Source: Escherichia phage HX01. Taken from it: a DNA stretch of 64,000 nt. The translations under genes were made by a program, and so were the position numbers. Under the pieces are notes generated by a model, which was not told where the DNA came from, did not search any database, and was given only the letters and a program-made list of their open reading frames with translations. The DNA lies in sequence record NC_018855.1; one strand, 5' to 3'. This document shows, one piece after another, positions 150-59,242 of this stretch. Positions within the stretch are counted from its first letter, which is position 1; every line of letters begins with the position of its first letter.

Positions 150-167
150 ACTTTAAGTGAGGAAAAT

Positions 168-512
168 ATGAAAGGCAATATTTATCTGGTAGTTCATGAC
201 TTAACGTTTTATTTTAACGAACGTGAAACAGTTATTTCCGATAGGTTAATTAATTCGCTGTATCAGCATGCTGATTATGTCTATTTTCAAAATGAATTCG
301 GACATTGGAAGTTTCTTAAAAACCGTTCCGGGTTAACTAGTTTTGAATACTTTGACCGTAAAGACCTTTTAAACGAAATTCCATTACAACATCGGTTCCA
401 GAAACGCGAATCACTATACTATTGTCGTCATATACCAAATGCTGAATGTGTTGATGAAGTAATTAATCTATGGCGTAGACGTAGAGAACAAATTGATGAT
501 ATGTCAAAATAA
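168..512 (+). CDS. hypothetical protein in tRNA region
   Basis: ORF track 120..512; start moved to ATG 168 after SD GAGG, since upstream part overlaps tRNA-Arg. Confidence 0.5.
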   Translation: MKGNIYLVVHDLTFYFNERETVISDRLINSLYQHADYVYFQNEFGHWKFLKNRSGLTSFEYFDRKDLLNEIPLQHRFQKRESLYYCRHIPNAECVDEVINLWRRRREQIDDMSK

Positions 513-680
513 GAAGCCGGGTCGCTACCGGCAAGTCGTCGGACTGATGTTCCCTGAGTAAGGACTGGTCTTAATAAATCTTTATGATTTGTTAATATCC
601 CCTTACATCACAGCAGAAACGGCGCAAAGAATTATCGATTCGAGGAAATATCTTTGCCGTAAGCCGAGTAGCGTTTTTGA

Positions 681-771
681 CGGAACGTTCGGATATGGTC
701 GAGATATGGCCTTTTAAAAATATTGAGTAGCGTCAACTGCTTAATAACCGGGTTCGAATCCCGGCGTTTCG
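681..771 (+). ncRNA. candidate tRNA-like small stable RNA
   Basis: Canonical T-arm CCGGG-TTCGAAT-CCCGG at 748-764 and possible acceptor pairing CGGAACG/CGTTTCG; D-arm not canonical; T4 encodes stable RNAs next to its tRNAs. Confidence 0.3.
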
Positions 772-815
772 TACAAACACTTGCCTTAGTAGGTGGAAAC
801 CCCGACAAGGTATAT

Positions 816-846
816 AGCCCCTTCCGAAAGGTTGGGGCTTTTTTGT
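816..846 (+). terminator. rho-independent terminator
   Basis: GC stem AGCCCC..GGGGCT followed by TTTTTT. Confidence 0.7.
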
Positions 847-888
847 ATAAATATAGTAAACAATAAACCTACTTTCTAAGGACCAGCA

Positions 889-8795: not shown

Positions 8796-9284
8796 ATGAA
8801 TATATTTGAAATGCTTCGTAATGACGAAGGTCTTAGACTGACTTTATACAAAGACACTGAAGGCTTTTGGACGATTGGCATAGGCCATTTAGTAACAAAG
8901 AACCCATCTTTAGCCGTAGCTAAAGCTGAACTTGACAGAATGATCGGCCGTAAATGCAACGGTACAATTACCCTTGATGAGGCTGAAAAGCTATTTAATG
9001 AAGACGTTGATAAAGCCGTTCGCGGAATCTTGGGTAATGCTAAACTTAAACCGGTATACGATTCTTTAGATGCGGTTCGTCGTTGTGCATTGGTCAATAT
9101 GGTCTTCCAAATGGGTGTAGCAGGCGTCGCCGGTTTTACTAATTCTCTTCGTATGCTTCAACAGAAACGTTGGGACGAAGCGGCAGTAAATCTAGCCCAA
9201 TCTAAATGGTATCGTCAGACACCCAATCGCGCGAAACGCGTAATATCAACATTTAAAACAGGAACTTGGAAAGCGTATATATGA
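8796..9284 (+). CDS. e: lysozyme (endolysin), T4 e homolog
   Basis: MNIFEMLR...DEAEKLF...[41 protein letters not shown] matches T4 lysozyme from memory. Confidence 0.95.
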
Positions 9285-9549
9285 AAACATATAGTGAATT
9301 TTTATCAGAATCTATTCTTAACGAAGCTACTGACACATTTGCAACTAAGTTAGGTGCAGCTTTGGTTGAAGCCGAAAGTCTATTAGCACGTATTTTAAGA
9401 TAGATACTCGCAAATTTGAACGTACCAGTGATATCGTTAAGCTTGAAGCCTTGTTGCGTATGTGTGATAAACCGGAAGAAATCGCTAAGAACGGCTCGCT
9501 GATGAAACAACGTCTTGAAAAATATATTTCAGGCGCTTCAGAAAAATAG
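9281..9549 (+). pseudogene. frame-disrupted internal-protein-like gene
   Basis: ATG 9281 (ATGA overlap with e) encodes [10 protein letters not shown]... for 40 codons to TAG 9401-9403; coding-like sequence continues in the +2 frame to TAG 9547-9549. Confidence 0.45.
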
Positions 9550-9550
9550 T

Positions 9551-9605
9551 GTTTACTTCCTCCAAGGGTTTTGATACTATACATTCATCAACTACTTGGA
9601 GGAAA
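9551..9605 (+). promoter_or_regulatory. early promoter with inverted repeat covering the denV ribosome-binding site
   Basis: GTTTAC 9551-9556; perfect 10-bp inverted repeat TTCCTCCAAG 9557-9566 / CTTGGAGGAA 9595-9604. Confidence 0.55.
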
Positions 9606-10112: not shown

Positions 10113-10415
10113 ATGAAAACATATCAAGAATTTATTACTGAAGCGCGAGTGAGTGCAGGTAAATTAGAAGCCGCTATAAATAAAAAGGCCCATTCATTTC
10201 ACGATTTGTCCGATAAAGACCGTAAGAAACTTGTAAGCCTTTATATTGACAAAGAGCGTATTCTCGCTCTTCCTGGCGCTAATGAAGGTAAACAGGCCAA
10301 GCCTTTGAATGCTGTTGAAAAGAAAATTGATAACTTTGCTTCTAAATTCGGTATGTCTATGGATGACCTTCAGCAAGCGGCTATCGAAGCAGCTAAAGTA
10401 ATTAAAGGTAAATAA
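10113..10415 (+). CDS. ipII: internal protein II-like
   Basis: 100 aa, N-terminus MKTYQEFITEARVSA (capsid-targeting-like). Confidence 0.65.
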   Translation: MKTYQEFITEARVSAGKLEAAINKKAHSFHDLSDKDRKKLVSLYIDKERILALPGANEGKQAKPLNAVEKKIDNFASKFGMSMDDLQQAAIEAAKVIKGK

Positions 10416-10687: not shown

Positions 10688-11227
10688 ATGAAAACATTTT
10701 TAACTGGACCTTATCTATCCCTGATGAATGCTTTTACACACCATTCTGATGCTAGAGTAGAAGAAATTTGTAAGAACGGTTATGTCCCACCATTTGAAGA
10801 CATACTCAAGCAGTACTGTACACTTCGTTTAGACGGTGGCAGACAATCAGGTAAATCCACTGCAGTAACTAATTTTGCTGCTAATTGGCTGCACGACGAT
10901 GGAACAGTTATTGTTCTTTCTAATACTTCAGCTTATGCTAAAATTTCTGCTGGCAACATTAAAAAAGAATTTTCTCGTTATTCTAGCGACGATATTCGAT
11001 TCCGTTTATTTACTGATTCTGTCCGTAGTTTTATTGGCAATGAAGGTTCTAAATTCCGTGGATTAACGCTTTCTCGTATTCTGTATATAATTGACGAGCC
11101 TATTAAAGCTCCTGATATGGATAAGATTTACAACATACATATTAAAACAGTCCAACACTGTTGCAAAAGCAAATATTGCATCAGTGGTATTGCTCGTCCT
11201 CAATTTTTTGTGATTGGAATGCAATGA
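10688..11227 (+). CDS. P-loop protein (Walker A GGRQSGKST), function unknown
   Basis: ORF track 10640..11227; ATG 10688 after SD AGAGAGAA. Confidence 0.55.
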   Translation: MKTFLTGPYLSLMNAFTHHSDARVEEICKNGYVPPFEDILKQYCTLRLDGGRQSGKSTAVTNFAANWLHDDGTVIVLSNTSAYAKISAGNIKKEFSRYSSDDIRFRLFTDSVRSFIGNEGSKFRGLTLSRILYIIDEPIKAPDMDKIYNIHIKTVQHCCKSKYCISGIARPQFFVIGMQ

Positions 11228-11532
11228 TGACCACTATTGAAGTTTTTGAGTATTGTTATAACAGCCCAGTATGCAATAAAAGGGCTCTTGTAGAAAATTA
11301 TGAGATTTACCATTTTAAACCTAAACGATACCGTTTGACTAAAGGTCCGTTCGCAGGGCAGCAGGTTCTTTGTACTGCTCCTAATGCACGGTTGATGACT
11401 AGTATTCCGCATTTCAAAATGGAATTTATTGATGGGCCATTTAAAGGATTAATCACTCAAAGTTTAATGGCGTTTAATTCCGACCCATTTTTGATTAAAG
11501 AAAAAACTTGGATAAATTTATTTTCTAATTGA
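11224..11532 (+). CDS. hypothetical protein
   Basis: ORF track 11161..11532; ATGA-coupled start 11224. Confidence 0.5.
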   Translation: MMTTIEVFEYCYNSPVCNKRALVENYEIYHFKPKRYRLTKGPFAGQQVLCTAPNARLMTSIPHFKMEFIDGPFKGLITQSLMAFNSDPFLIKEKTWINLFSN

Positions 11533-11538
11533 GGTTAT

Positions 11539-11901
11539 ATGAAAGCATATCAAATTCTTGAAGGTGTACATAAAGGCACTATTTATTTTGAAGACGGTAC
11601 TCAAGCCCGGATTATCGTCTCTAAGACTTTTAAAGAAGACGCTATTGTAGACCCGGAAATTTTCTACGGTTTGAATGCCCGTGAAATTGAAATTGAACAT
11701 CAACCTAAAGTTAAAATTGAAGGTGGTCAACACCTGAACGTTAACGTTCTGCGTCGTGAAACTCTGGAAGATGCAGTTAAGCATCCGGAAAAATATCCGC
11801 AGCTGACCATCCGTGTATCCGGTTATGCAGTTCGCTTTAACTCTCTGACTCCGGAACAGCAGCGCGACGTTATCGCTCGGACATTTACCGAGAGTCTATA
11901 A
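11539..11901 (+). CDS. grcA: autonomous glycyl-radical cofactor (GrcA/YfiD-like)
   Basis: C-terminal [63 protein letters not shown] with glycyl-radical signature RVSGY; a T4 YfiD homolog (Y06I) is known. Confidence 0.85.
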
Positions 11902-15114: not shown

Positions 15115-15688
15115 TTTAATTTTTACATATGCCGCTATGAACGCTGGTAAGTCTGCTTCATTACTTACTGCCGCACATAACTATAAAGAACGTGGCATGG
15201 GTGTATTAGTTCTTAAACCGGATATTGATACTCGCGATTCAAAAGGTGAAATAGTCTCTCGTATTGGTATTCGTCAGGACGCCAATATAATTACAAAAGA
15301 CATGGATATCTTTGAATTCTATAAATGGGCTGCAGCACAAAAGGATATTCATTGTGTATTTGTTGACGAAGCTCAGTTCTTAACTACTGAAAAGGTGTAT
15401 CAACTTAGTCGTATTGTTGACGTATACAATGTGCCGGTAATGGCATATGGACTACGAACAGATTTTAAAGGTAATCTATTTGAAGGTTCTCAAGCATTAA
15501 TGGCTATTGCCGATAAGCTTGTTGAACTTAAAGGTGTCTGTCATTGCGGTAAAAAAGCCACAATGGTAGCTAGAGTCACGGAAGATGGACTTCCAATTAC
15601 AGATGGCAGTCAAATTGAAATTGGTGATACCGATAGATATGTGTCATTATGCCGGAAGCATTGGAATGATTTGACAGGGTTGTTATAA
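15107..15688 (+). CDS. tk: thymidine kinase
   Basis: MASLIFTYAAMNAGKSASLL...VDEAQFL...CHCGKKA matches T4 Tk. Confidence 0.95.
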   Translation: MASLIFTYAAMNAGKSASLLTAAHNYKERGMGVLVLKPDIDTRDSKGEIVSRIGIRQDANIITKDMDIFEFYKWAAAQKDIHCVFVDEAQFLTTEKVYQLSRIVDVYNVPVMAYGLRTDFKGNLFEGSQALMAIADKLVELKGVCHCGKKATMVARVTEDGLPITDGSQIEIGDTDRYVSLCRKHWNDLTGLL

Positions 15689-15715: not shown

Positions 15716-15928
15716 ATGCAGCAATTAAACGAAAGACAACTTCGTAATCTTACTGTAACCCAATTGGACGAAATCCGAAGAGAAATAGGACATTCTATTT
15801 CTCATTTAAACGAGGATATCCGTCAAACTGGTTCTAAAGCTGATTATACACGCAAGCGCAAGCTGGAAAAATACCTCACAGATGTTAAGGCCGTCCAAAG
15901 GCGAAAAATAAATACTGGCCAAAATTAA
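15716..15928 (+). CDS. hypothetical protein
   Basis: 70-aa ORF, SD AGAGG. Confidence 0.5.
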
Positions 15929-15940
15929 CAGGAGGCCTAT

Positions 15941-16243
15941 ATGGCCTTAAGAGCGATAGCTGTCATGGCGATGCTGGGGTTTTTTGCAGCAACAACTCCT
16001 AACGTTGGTACTGCGTACACCGACCCATATTTTGATAACTTTATGGAATCAGGGATTAAAAACGTATATACTTTGTTTGAAATTCAAAATGTCGAGAATT
16101 CTGAAAAATTCTATAAGTATATGGCAAAGCATTACAAAAATAGCCCCTGTGATGATGCATTTGAATGCCATGAACAAGGCATAAAAACTGCCAGACAATT
16201 TGCCGAGTTCATGAAAATAAAATTAGAGCCTACATCTATCTAA
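15941..16243 (+). CDS. rI: lysis-inhibition regulator RI
   Basis: MALRAIAVMAMLGFF...DPYFDNFMESGI...KIKLE matches T4 RI from memory. Confidence 0.85.
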   Translation: MALRAIAVMAMLGFFAATTPNVGTAYTDPYFDNFMESGIKNVYTLFEIQNVENSEKFYKYMAKHYKNSPCDDAFECHEQGIKTARQFAEFMKIKLEPTSI

Positions 16244-55113: not shown

Positions 55114-55362
55114 ATGGAATTATTCGTAGCTAGTTCAGTAGCGGTTTTAATCGCAGGTATTGGTTCAATCATCATTTACATGTTGCCTTGGGTAATCGCA
55201 CTTATTCGTGGCACAAAAAGCACAACAGCAATCTTTTTTGTATCTTTACTCTTTAACTGGACGATGATTGGTTGGATTGGAACTTTAATTTGGTCTATCG
55301 TTGCCGAAAAGAAATCTGCCCAGCAGCCTCAACAAGTAATTATTATTCGCGAAAAAGAATAA
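55114..55362 (+). CDS. small two-TM membrane protein
   Basis: 82 aa, two hydrophobic helices. Confidence 0.6.
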   Translation: MELFVASSVAVLIAGIGSIIIYMLPWVIALIRGTKSTTAIFFVSLLFNWTMIGWIGTLIWSIVAEKKSAQQPQQVIIIREKE

Positions 55363-55425: not shown

Positions 55426-55719
55426 ATGAAAAAGTTATCATTGGCAGCAATCTTACTTGCAGTATCATGTGCACCAGCTCCAGTTACGGCAGGTTATGAT
55501 AAAGACCTCTGTGAGTGGTCAATGACTGCAAATCAAGAAGATGTTGAACAACAAATCTTCTCTGATATCATGAACATCACTAAACGAGACCGTCCTAATA
55601 TGGTTAATAAAGTTGTTGAACAACTTAAGTCTGGCGGTATCATGCAGTACAACTATGTTTTGTATTGTGACCCTAATTTCGATAACAAAGATATCGTAAC
55701 CGAAATCACAGGTGAATAA
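55426..55719 (+). CDS. sp: Spackle periplasmic protein
   Basis: 97 aa, signal peptide, GYDKDLCEWSMTA...SGGIMQYNYVLYCD matches T4 Sp from memory. Confidence 0.8.
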   Translation: MKKLSLAAILLAVSCAPAPVTAGYDKDLCEWSMTANQEDVEQQIFSDIMNITKRDRPNMVNKVVEQLKSGGIMQYNYVLYCDPNFDNKDIVTEITGE

Positions 55720-57096: not shown

Positions 57097-58119
57097 ATGG
57101 CTGAATGGATAGATAATGAATTTGCTTATCGTGCGTTTTCTCACCTCCCTCGTTTTAGACAAATCAATAATTCAAGCACATTTAAATTAACATTTCGTTG
57201 TCCAGTTTGTGGCGACTCCCAGACAGATGCAATGAAAGCTCGCGGATGGTATTATGGCGGTACTCCTGGTAATGTACATTGCTATAACTGCCAATACCAC
57301 AATACAATTTCCGGATACTTAAAAGAGTATGATGAAGAGCTTTACCGCGAATATCTAATGGAAGTTCGTAAAGAAAAAGCTAGAATGGAACCAAAGATTG
57401 AAAAGGTTCCTGAACATAAACCAGAACCGGAGAAAAAGACTATAAATTCTTTGCCGTCTTGTTCTCGTCTGGACAAGCTGCCTGAAGAGCATCCTATTGT
57501 GAAATATGTTAAGTCTCGATGCATTCCTAAAGAATCATGGAACAGATTATGGTTCACATTAGAATGGCCCAAATTGGTCAACAAGATTCAACCCGGTACG
57601 TATAAGAAAGAGATTCCGGAACCACGTTTAGTGATTCCTATTTTTAATAAAGACGGGAAGGCTGAATCATTCCAAGGGCGTGCACTTCGTAAAGATGCTC
57701 CTCAGAAATATATCACTATTAAAGCGTTTGAGTCTGCAACAAAAATTTATGGTGTTGAACGTGTTAAGGAAGGAGACGTCTGGGTAATGGAAGGCCCTAT
57801 TGATAGTTTATTCATACCCAACGCAATCGCTATTACAGGCGGCTCAATAGATTTAGATGTGGTACCATTTAAAGAACGTCGGGTATGGGTAATGGATAAT
57901 GAACCTAGGCATCCGGATACTATAGCTCGCATGAAGCGATTAGTTGATGCAGGCGAACGTGTCATGTTCTGGGACCGAGCTCCGTGGAGATCAAAGGATG
58001 TGAATGATATGGTAATGAAAGAAAATGCAACACCACAAGAAATTTTAGAATATATGAAACAGAATATTTCAAGTGGGTTGCATGCTAAAATGAGATTATC
58101 TCGTTATTCGAAGATTTAA
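57097..58119 (+). CDS. 61: DNA primase gp61
   Basis: Zinc ribbon CPVCGDS...CYNCQYH and TOPRIM region; 340 aa. Confidence 0.93.
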   Translation: MAEWIDNEFAYRAFSHLPRFRQINNSSTFKLTFRCPVCGDSQTDAMKARGWYYGGTPGNVHCYNCQYHNTISGYLKEYDEELYREYLMEVRKEKARMEPKIEKVPEHKPEPEKKTINSLPSCSRLDKLPEEHPIVKYVKSRCIPKESWNRLWFTLEWPKLVNKIQPGTYKKEIPEPRLVIPIFNKDGKAESFQGRALRKDAPQKYITIKAFESATKIYGVERVKEGDVWVMEGPIDSLFIPNAIAITGGSIDLDVVPFKERRVWVMDNEPRHPDTIARMKRLVDAGERVMFWDRAPWRSKDVNDMVMKENATPQEILEYMKQNISSGLHAKMRLSRYSKI

Positions 58120-58313
58120 ACAAGCCCTATAATAGCAAAGGCCAAATCAACTACAGTATCCAATGGAACAGAAGGAACTATAATACCATGGGCAACTAAC
58201 AATGGTGCAATCCCGAAGTTCCATGAAATAATGCCACCTACAACTATTGCAGCGATAGCAGTTTTCTTTTTATTGCCTTTAATAGCGTTGATTAACGATG
58301 GAAGTTTAAACAT
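58116..58313 (-). CDS. small two-TM membrane peptide on the opposite strand
   Basis: Minus-strand ATG at 58313 preceded by SD AAGGAG with 6-nt spacer; hydrophobic with GG motif; overlaps primase stop by 4 nt. Confidence 0.6.
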   Translation of the reverse strand: MFKLPSLINAIKGNKKKTAIAAIVVGGIISWNFGIAPLLVAHGIIVPSVPLDTVVDLAFAIIGLV

Positions 58314-58403
58314 AATATCTCCTTAGTTACCTTATTATTTATTACGCTTTATAAAATTAATGTTAGAATTAACTTCTCTTATACTGAATTGAAAGGAAAA
58401 ATA

Positions 58404-58925
58404 ATGGCACACTTTAACGAATGTTCACAACTTATTTCTGGTGTTGATAAAGCAGAAGAAGCTTATTTTAATGCTCTGATTCACGAAGATAAAGACCCAC
58501 TGCAGGTAATGCTTGATATGCAGAAATCTTTACAGGTTCGTCTGGCAAATGACAAGCCTGAACATAACAAACATCCTGATGAATTAGCCACTGCTGGCGA
58601 TGTTGTTGATTGGCTGCGTAATCAGAAAGATTATATTGATGATGAATTCCGTGAACTGCTGACTTCACTTGGTGGTATGAGCAATGGTGAAAAAGCCGCT
58701 AGCTCTGTATGGAAGCCGTGGAAGGCACAACATGCTGAATATCGAAATCGTCGTATCGATGAACTGTCTCCTGAAGACCAGCTTGAAATTAAATTCGAGA
58801 TGATTGATATCCTCCACTTTGTTCTGAATATGTTCCAAGGTCTGGGTCTTTCCGCTGAAGAAATCTTTAAACTGTATTACCTGAAAAACCAACACAACTT
58901 TGAACGCCAGGATAATGGTTACTGA
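58404..58925 (+). CDS. 56: dCTPase/dUTPase gp56 (MazG-like)
   Basis: MAHFNECSQLISGVDKAEEAYFNAL...; position after primase as in T4. Confidence 0.85.
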   Translation: MAHFNECSQLISGVDKAEEAYFNALIHEDKDPLQVMLDMQKSLQVRLANDKPEHNKHPDELATAGDVVDWLRNQKDYIDDEFRELLTSLGGMSNGEKAASSVWKPWKAQHAEYRNRRIDELSPEDQLEIKFEMIDILHFVLNMFQGLGLSAEEIFKLYYLKNQHNFERQDNGY

Positions 58926-58970: not shown

Positions 58971-59207
58971 ATGGGTGGTTACGTTAATATTAAAACCTTT
59001 ACACGTCCGGCTGGTGAAGGCAAAGAAGTTAAAGGTATGGAAGTTTCTGTACCGTTTGAGATTTATTCAAACGAACATCGGATTGCGGATTCTCATTACC
59101 AAATCTTTCCATCAGAAAAGGCAGCATATTCTACTGTAGTTTCTGATGCAGCTGATTGGAAAACTAAGAACGCTGCAATGTTTACCCCTACACCAGTAAG
59201 CGGTTAA
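58971..59207 (+). CDS. soc: small outer capsid protein Soc
   Basis: GYVNIKTF...YQIFPSEKAAYSTV matches T4 Soc. Confidence 0.9.
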   Translation: MGGYVNIKTFTRPAGEGKEVKGMEVSVPFEIYSNEHRIADSHYQIFPSEKAAYSTVVSDAADWKTKNAAMFTPTPVSG

Positions 59208-59215
59208 ATAATTTA

Positions 59216-59242
59216 AGGAATCCTTCGGGATTCCTTTTTTTG
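59216..59242 (+). terminator. rho-independent terminator
   Basis: AGGAATCC-TTCG-GGATTCCT then TTTTTTT. Confidence 0.8.

Follow-up and report, generated by a model that had tools for sequence, protein, structure and literature searches.

A conserved small gene opposite the primase gene of T-even-type phages, predicted to encode a late membrane protein

The closest described counterparts of the gene considered here are RB69ORF029w of phage RB69 and the protein family PHROG 2024, which is labelled 'unknown function'. For RB69ORF029w, one transmembrane (TM) helix was predicted at residues 21–41 by Nolan et al. in 2006 (PMC1524935 supplement). In phage T4, early and middle transcripts are of one polarity, and late transcripts are of either (PMC2988020). 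Of 50 listed T4 late promoters, 32 are perfect and nine carry an A at -13, and variant promoters are used in vitro and in vivo (PMC2988020). The T at -13 is poorly conserved in T4 relatives (Nolan et al., PMC1524935). We analysed 64,000 nucleotides of Escherichia phage HX01 (sequence record NC_018855.1); this whole stretch is referred to as the window. Our subject is a 65-codon open reading frame (ORF) on its minus strand (58116..58313), hereafter the small ORF, which converges with the gene of primase gp61. The original prediction, made from the letters of the window, had described it as a convincing gene for a small membrane peptide.

The small ORF and its signals comprise the following features:

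58116..58313, minus strand: coding sequence, 65 codons plus TAA; PHROG 2024 / RB69ORF029w family
58319..58324, minus strand: Shine-Dalgarno (SD) sequence AAGGAG, 5 nt (ATATT) before the ATG
58314..58330, minus strand: predicted 17-nt 5' leader, with the start inferred at 58330, 6 nt past the promoter motif
58343->58336, minus strand: late-promoter-like element AATAAATA, which is the T4 TATAAATA consensus with A at -13; it starts 30 nt before the ATG
58116..58119, both strands: TTAA shared by the two convergent stops (small ORF and primase gp61)

The product of 65 aa, whose ATG lies at 58311-58313, is MFKLPSLINAIKGNKKKTAIAAIVVGGIISWNFGIAPLLVAHGIIVPSVPLDTVVDLAFAIIGLV. Coordinates, strand, length, start codon and convergence with primase were as originally claimed, and so was the 4-nt overlap with the primase stop: TTAA reads TAA on each strand. 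The AAGGAG sequence was also found as described, while its spacer was one nucleotide shorter than the 6 nt given. Read along the minus strand, the upstream order is GCGT-AATAAATA-ATAAGGTAACT-AAGGAG-ATATT-ATG. A strong SD (AAGGAG, AAGGAGG, AGGAGG or GGAGG) was present in all 15 lineages examined. The same 4-nt stop overlap was found in T4, Bas37, STP4-a, CF1, PWKp16 and the loci L009 and L014; it was absent in CJ20, JD18, Bp7 and L010.

The small ORF is an accessory gene of T-even-type phages (Tevenvirinae), and it is already catalogued as an annotated hypothetical family. The match to PHROG 2024 spanned the full length of the protein (residues 1–65 of the 65-position profile, E = 1.9e-27). Annotated names are RB69ORF029w (RB69), 'dam.1' (RB10), 'putative membrane protein' (HMD-9) and bas37_0144 (Bas37); in most other annotated records among those listed, the label is 'hypothetical protein'. 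The window protein was 100% identical to proteins of many Mosigvirus genomes. With tblastn, the ORF was found in 691 phage records when the window protein was the query and in 917 when a divergent member was used. Slot and orientation beside primase were confirmed in nine genera (Tequatro-, Mosig-, Gapriver-, Dhaka-, Jiaoda-, Gelderland-, Moon-, Kanagawa- and Marfavirus), and the same slot (opposite strand, gp56 side of primase) was also occupied on four metagenomic contigs. RB49 (Krischvirus) was without the ORF, and genes 56 and 61 abut there.

A first protein search gave close relatives only. Two more searches, started from the T4 and Gaprivervirus orthologs, served to build a family profile of 22 sequences. 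Among 1.84 billion representative proteins, this profile gave nine matches, all of them small family members or fragments, and no homologs outside T4-like phages. Four remote matches (~25–35% identity) were each encoded between primase and dCTPase, on the opposite strand, on T4-like contigs.

The pattern of substitutions was that of a protein under purifying selection. The Nei–Gojobori ratio of nonsynonymous to synonymous substitution rates (dN/dS) was 0.05–0.34 in all non-saturated pairs. Of the 17 substitutions in the two most similar pairs, 12 were synonymous, where neutrality would predict 25% (P = 9e-5). The frame of 60–69 codons, the strong SD and the hydropathy pattern persist even at the greatest distances, at which synonymous sites are saturated. 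Family members have 60–69 aa, a basic N-terminus, one TM helix and a W-N...P...G...(D/E) pattern, and the window protein shares all of these. Purifying selection, deep synteny and the full-length PHROG match bear out the claim of a genuine protein-coding gene, and we have little doubt that the small ORF is such a gene and that it encodes a membrane protein.

The small gene was kept while its neighbours varied (slots L002, L009, L015, L019, L020 and L022). The junctions that flank it are insertion hot spots. In T4, dam lies between the small gene and gene 56. A homing endonuclease (Bp7) or a 124-aa ORF (contig L015) is found between the small gene and primase. The flanking junctions of PWKp16 carry MazG and LprI-domain genes, and those of CF1 and of metagenomic contigs carry several small ORFs.

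Judged from promoter motif and polarity, the small ORF is likely to be expressed late. The element upstream had been likened to the T4 late promoter and to the element before lysozyme, and both comparisons were correct: the same AATAAATA precedes lysozyme e (motif 8764, ATG 8796), and A at -13 is a recognised variant (PMC2988020). In the window, AATAAATA also precedes the antiholin gene rI and gene 49. The start was predicted at 58330 because the T4 late motif occupies -13..-6 (PMC1524935). ATAAATA occurs ten times on both strands of the window, with 0.0035 occurrences expected per 45-nt stretch. The window has nine [TA]ATAAATA sites, and for eight of them a gene starts no more than 45 nt downstream (P = 3.8e-11). 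The genes behind them include e, rI, gene 49 (endonuclease VII) and soc. All four are late-promoter genes in T4. The sole [TA]ATAAATA site of the window that is not beside a gene start is a minus-strand AATAAATA at 11587, with no ORF behind it.

Across the family, 13 of 15 lineages have NATAAATA 20–41 nt before the ATG; STP4-a and CF1 have ATTAAATA in its place. The first base of the motif is T, giving a perfect TATAAATA, in Bp7, Q7622 and PWKp16, and A, G or C in the others. As the flanking sequence has diverged around the conserved motif, the motif itself appears to be under selection.

The element AATAAATA is of the late type and is placed for a short leader. Moreover, the polarity of the small ORF is incompatible with early or middle transcription, since it is opposite to all such genes of the window. 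Late transcription is therefore the only known expression route. Going by these signals, the small ORF very probably depends on a T4-type late promoter. It would be transcribed only in the late mode, by RNA polymerase directed by gp55/gp33/gp45, and the product would be a short monocistronic mRNA with the 17-nt leader and the strong SD. No terminator-like site was found between the convergent primase gene and small ORF, or anywhere between genes 61 and 56, and a terminator separating the convergent genes was accordingly rejected. This means that the late mRNA probably extends antisense into the 3' end of gene 61, and that read-through RNA from primase to gp56 should be antisense to the small ORF earlier in infection.

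Three perfect TATAAATA elements on the plus strand of the window stand before other ORFs. The one at 846 precedes an ORF starting at 889 (208 aa), the one at 10175 an ORF starting at 10206 (69 aa, TTG start) and the one at 15684 an ORF starting at 15716 (70 aa, directly upstream of rI). From the motif, these three ORFs are probably further late transcription units. Pfam gave no match for the 208-aa and the 70-aa ORF.

The protein is divided into three parts:

58263..58313, minus strand: residues 1–17, amphipathic helix (3–11) and basic cluster KGNKKK; predicted cytoplasmic (AlphaFold2, positive-inside rule)
58191..58262, minus strand: residues 18–41, TM helix with invariant W31 and P37 and near-invariant N32 (AlphaFold2, hydropathy, alignments)
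58119..58190, minus strand: residues 42–65, tail, predicted periplasmic or interfacial (AlphaFold2, hydropathy)

AlphaFold2, run on the family alignment, gave a mean predicted local distance difference test score (pLDDT) of 84.6. Helices were placed at residues 3–11, 15–41 (pLDDT about 88–91) and 51–62, and a loop at 42–50. The best 19-residue segment had an insertion score of -2.4 to +3.8 kcal/mol across lineages. Four to six K/R residues lie N-terminal to the TM helix in every lineage, and by the positive-inside rule the N-terminus would be cytoplasmic and the tail on the periplasmic face. A single-pass inner-membrane protein in the N-in/C-out orientation is thus what we consider probable. 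The description as a small membrane protein agrees with the AlphaFold2 helix, with hydropathy and with the independent TM prediction for RB69ORF029w.

Two hydrophobic helices with a GG motif had been described, and this held in part. The sequence does have both hydrophobic stretches and the GG (G26-G27), but a TM helix is predicted for the first stretch only, and the GG is confined to Mosigvirus. A second TM helix was rejected because the tail is too short, Pro-rich and acidic, and AlphaFold2 gives only a 12-residue helix there. Family-wide, the tail after the invariant Gly has 19–27 aa, one to three Pro and one or two acidic residues, with a summed insertion score of +4 to +13 kcal/mol. A functional GG or GxxxG motif was rejected, as it is not conserved across the family. 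A weakly hydrophobic TM helix of the signal-anchor-release (SAR) type was rejected as well: the helix is Ala/Gly-rich in some clades only and strongly hydrophobic in Gaprivervirus.

W31, P37 and G43 are invariant in the family, and N32 (Asp in one lineage) and D/E52 are near-invariant. Besides G43, the tail contains a Pro turn (conserved P47), the conserved acidic D52 and an amphipathic helix of 12 residues (51–62). Conservation peaks in the half of the TM helix that is predicted to be nearer the periplasm, and in the turn next to the membrane. The Dhaka-, Kanagawa- and Marfavirus clade has an extra Asp in the TM helix (..LALDVFLWN..) besides the conserved Asn, and also the perfect TATAAATA (Bp7, L020 1474..1674; Q7622, L021 1465..1674; PWKp16, L022 1456..1656). 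The protein had no match in Pfam (E ≤ 0.1), in NCBIfam (E ≤ 1) or in a sequence-profile search of the PDB. Foldseek gave noise only against the PDB (E > 7), and against BFVD it returned only members of the same family.

A recent phage transposon sequencing study, HIDEN-SEQ (2025 preprint, bioRxiv 10.1101/2025.11.20.689424), covers the T4 relative Bas37 (KarlGJung). Its ortholog bas37_0144 (91945..92145, plus strand) shares 52% identity with the window protein. It has a 4-nt overlap with primase, and GATAAATA and AAGGAGG stand before it. According to the Bas37 tables of the preprint, insertions hit 20 of the 24 TA sites of bas37_0144, which is classed as 'Non-essential'; in the same tables, the dCTPase is without insertions and primase is intermediate (bioRxiv 10.1101/2025.11.20.689424). 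In three of the six host-comparison sheets, which are the source of the Bas37 fitness changes used here, its log2 fold change was +0.33, +0.20 and -0.28, with q = 1 in all three (bioRxiv 10.1101/2025.11.20.689424). As far as these tables go, the tolerated insertions mean that the gene is dispensable for plaque growth on E. coli K-12 and the isolates examined. This dispensability argues against an essential role in lysis or assembly and fits an accessory, condition-specific role.

A late-expressed small membrane protein is well supported as a prediction from sequence. As the overall best explanation, we lean towards a late accessory bitopic membrane protein that modulates another membrane protein. 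In this model, the basic N-terminus would stay in the cytoplasm, and a single TM helix with the invariant Trp-Asn pair would cross the membrane, with P37 and G43 towards the periplasm. The short Pro-rich tail with its acidic amphipathic helix would lie at the periplasmic face. Asparagine within the bilayer is known to drive the association of TM helices. Here, the buried Asn and Trp could mediate helix-helix association with another membrane protein or with the protein itself; this mode of action is proposed because conservation is strongest inside and just outside the membrane. The protein itself would not form a hole. As a small protein made late, it would adjust some envelope process; examples are the timing or inhibition of lysis, the exclusion of superinfecting phages late in infection and the activity of a host membrane protein. 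The modulator mechanism itself, acting through the conserved W-N...P...G surface, is the likeliest one that we see, but we hold it as less likely than not.

Several points weigh against this explanation. The TM helix is marginal on a simple insertion scale in some clades (+2 to +4 kcal/mol), and the topology was deduced from charge bias only. The list of 31 RB69 late promoters that Nolan et al. obtained with a hidden Markov model includes the soc promoter and none at the position of the small ORF. The promoter may be weak, as the first base of the motif is non-consensus in most lineages. In a literature search, we found no paper reporting transcript, ribosome or peptide evidence and no description of the gene or its expression; the CRISPRi-ART paper does not mention the region. 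The modulator idea draws on analogy and on the location of conservation, with no partner protein known. Finally, the HIDEN-SEQ sheets used here record no fitness effect and hence give no hint of the process involved.

The locus has the T4 gene order: imm, spackle, 61.2-like and 61.1-like ORFs, primase gp61, the small ORF, gp56 and soc. About 2 kb around the small ORF are 98% identical to Mosigvirus (RB69-like T-even) phages, e.g. TU01 and phi25-307. The neighbours in the window are:

55114..55362, plus strand: imm (PF14373 superinfection immunity), by profile match
55426..55719, plus strand: spackle (sp)
57097..58119, plus strand: primase gp61, convergent with the small ORF
58404..58925, plus strand: dCTPase gp56, divergent from the small ORF
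58971..59207, plus strand: soc

The start signals of the small ORF and of gp56 are both inside the 90-bp gap 58314-58403. That nearly all genes of the window are on the plus strand, as had been stated, was seen in a greedy ORF map: 107 plus-strand ORFs make up 87% of the window. In this map, 58116..58313 was the sole minus-strand ORF with an SD inside a gap between plus-strand ORFs. The remaining minus-strand ORFs of the window look spurious, and the small ORF is the one convincing minus-strand gene among about 108. Two plus-strand coding gaps (9253..9584 and 11200..11456) contain only implausible minus-strand ORFs.

Behind soc lies a perfect 9-bp stem with a GC-rich core (59215..59236); after it, the plus strand has a run of T and the minus strand an A/T-rich tail. 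This arrangement suggests an intrinsic terminator that works in both directions and closes the gene 56-soc unit. At the other end of the window, positions 150..850 are ORF-poor and follow two tRNA genes, one at 1-66, cut by the window edge, and one at 73-149 (tRNA-Arg). Phage phi25-307 annotates an opposite-strand ORF of 63 aa there (gp106, window 632..808), which has no SD and looks spurious. A search of 150..850 with Rfam gave nothing at gathering score. This region may hold small stable RNAs, as in T4.

Of the competing explanations, the one that holds up best is that the product is itself a lysis protein, either a small holin or pinholin or an antiholin that binds holin T and helps to set lysis time or lysis inhibition. 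We consider this quite unlikely. The product is a small and probably late membrane protein with at least one TM domain, as expected of a holin, e and rI of the window are also behind AATAAATA-type promoters, and the family is found only in T-even-type phages, a group known for lysis inhibition. One ortholog entry in UniProt/BFVD is even named 'Holin'. This name is given to one member only, with the other listed members called 'hypothetical' or 'uncharacterized'. It was rejected as a single UniProt name without supporting evidence, since GenBank calls the same protein hypothetical.

Neither a Pfam holin or antiholin model nor a described holin family matched the protein. There is no lysis cassette and no endolysin linkage (e at 8796 is 49 kb away). 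Holins typically end in a charged tail. The window protein ends in ...DLAFAIIGLV; the tail has a net charge of -2 to 0, and family members share the hydrophobic end. A separate RI is encoded in the window (PF24205, E = 4.7e-24, 15941..16243). The small protein did not match PF24205 and has no folded periplasmic domain; its predicted periplasmic tail of 24 aa is far below the size of the globular domain of RI. A requirement for lysis was not seen either. In the Bas37 library, the mean insertion count was 119.5 for bas37_0144 compared with 16 for the depleted rI, and the tables of the same preprint call e essential in the T4 library (bioRxiv 10.1101/2025.11.20.689424). The labels holin-like and antiholin-like of the original prediction were therefore not upheld, given the missing Pfam match and charged tail, the distance from e, the separate RI and the non-essential ortholog.

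A late factor for envelope protection or superinfection exclusion, serving the same purpose as Imm and Spackle, would block DNA entry or receptor function during the assembly of progeny. Its attraction is the neighbourhood: the small ORF is in the same conserved block as imm and sp, and spackle is annotated or detected in this block in T4, RB69, phi25-307, JD18, Bas37 and the contigs L009, L010, L012 and L015. A small inner-membrane protein with conserved residues facing the periplasm would suit such a role. Moreover, the function would be invisible to single-infection fitness screens, which would fit the HIDEN-SEQ result in the Bas37 tables. However, this is a neighbourhood argument only, and the gene order there is simply the T4 backbone. 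The protein has no sequence relation to Imm (no PF14373 match), and imm and sp are expressed early, from the opposite strand. This explanation is decidedly unlikely in our view.

A toxin-like peptide of type I style, which depolarises the membrane and shuts down or kills the host late in infection, appears very improbable. The product is indeed short and hydrophobic with a polar Asn in the TM helix (and the additional Asp in the Dhaka-, Kanagawa- and Marfavirus clade), and primase transcripts must cross the ORF in antisense, as no terminator-like site lies between genes 61 and 56. Type I toxins typically have a repressed, structured leader; the small ORF instead comes with a strong SD and its own late promoter. 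We saw no gene for a dedicated antitoxin RNA, homologs were confined to T4-like phages in our searches, and the Bas37 ortholog is dispensable in the preprint tables. A toxin would also add little late in infection, when the host is already committed to death. The toxin-like label thus found no support.

The last alternative is scarcely credible: an untranslated ORF whose conserved late promoter yields RNA antisense to the 3' end of the primase mRNA, or an R-loop near oriA, would draw on the lack of a terminator-like site before gene 61, on T4 oriA being annotated ~1 kb away inside gene 56 and on a review of T4 replication that suggests late-promoter R-loops as possible cryptic origins (PMC3016281), but substitutions are frame-specific and purifying, 15 lineages down to ~30% identity, where synonymous sites are saturated, retain a 60–69-codon frame and a strong SD, and hydropathy and W-N...P...G...D/E are conserved at the protein level, which an additional antisense role, though it could exist, cannot explain.

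With the late accessory membrane modulator as the preferred reading, the feature itself is an ordinary one, a catalogued hypothetical gene. The by-product of the analysis is an unannotated ortholog in T4, the best-studied phage. The T4 RefSeq record NC_000866 has a gap of 309 bp between dam (ends 17625) and gene 61 (starts 17935). The ortholog begins inside this gap at NC_000866 17738..17938, plus strand (= L002 3239..3439). It has 66 aa, is 54% identical to the window protein and has GATAAATA and AAGGAGG upstream. It is unannotated in RefSeq NC_000866, in the T2 record and in the T4 gene table of HIDEN-SEQ, and it is called in the Pyrodigal-annotated T4 record OZ209057. In a collection of 15 billion sequences, the exact T4 protein was found in raw assemblies only, without an accession. 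Consequently, T4-based omics and screens that build on these annotations skip the small gene.

The gene is kept next to primase in all nine Tevenvirinae genera examined, and the residues conserved in its product suggest a specific interaction within the membrane. This makes it a cheap and well-defined target for functional work. There is some chance, which we rate as low, that it is an overlooked component of T-even envelope control, one that works late with the holin T/RI/RIII machinery of lysis inhibition or with a host membrane complex. If so, six decades of T4 genetics and the modern T4 screens would have missed it because it is absent from the T4 reference annotation and because its phenotype is seen only under superinfection or on particular hosts.

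Compared with known systems, the window protein resembles T4 Imm in having fewer than 100 aa, in its predicted inner-membrane location and in lying in the same genomic block, 3 kb away. T4 Imm has two TM helices. Unlike the small ORF, imm is early and on the other strand, and the sequences are unrelated. With T4 RI and holin T, the protein shares small size, one N-terminal-proximal TM helix and a C-terminal part predicted to be periplasmic, and with RI of the window also the AATAAATA promoter variant. It differs from both in sequence and profile, in having ~24 periplasmic residues rather than a folded domain, in the lack of a charged C-terminal tail and in a non-essential ortholog without a marked fitness cost in the preprint sheets. 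By way of analogy, bacterial small membrane-protein regulators such as MgrB, AcrZ and MgtS are similar in size, have a single TM helix and are conserved in the TM and juxtamembrane regions, a likeness that suggests binding of a larger membrane protein. The window protein has no known partner, is not homologous to them, is phage-encoded and is probably late. The closest system is RB69ORF029w / PHROG 2024: the family is the same, for Mosigvirus members the protein is the same, and position and orientation do not differ.

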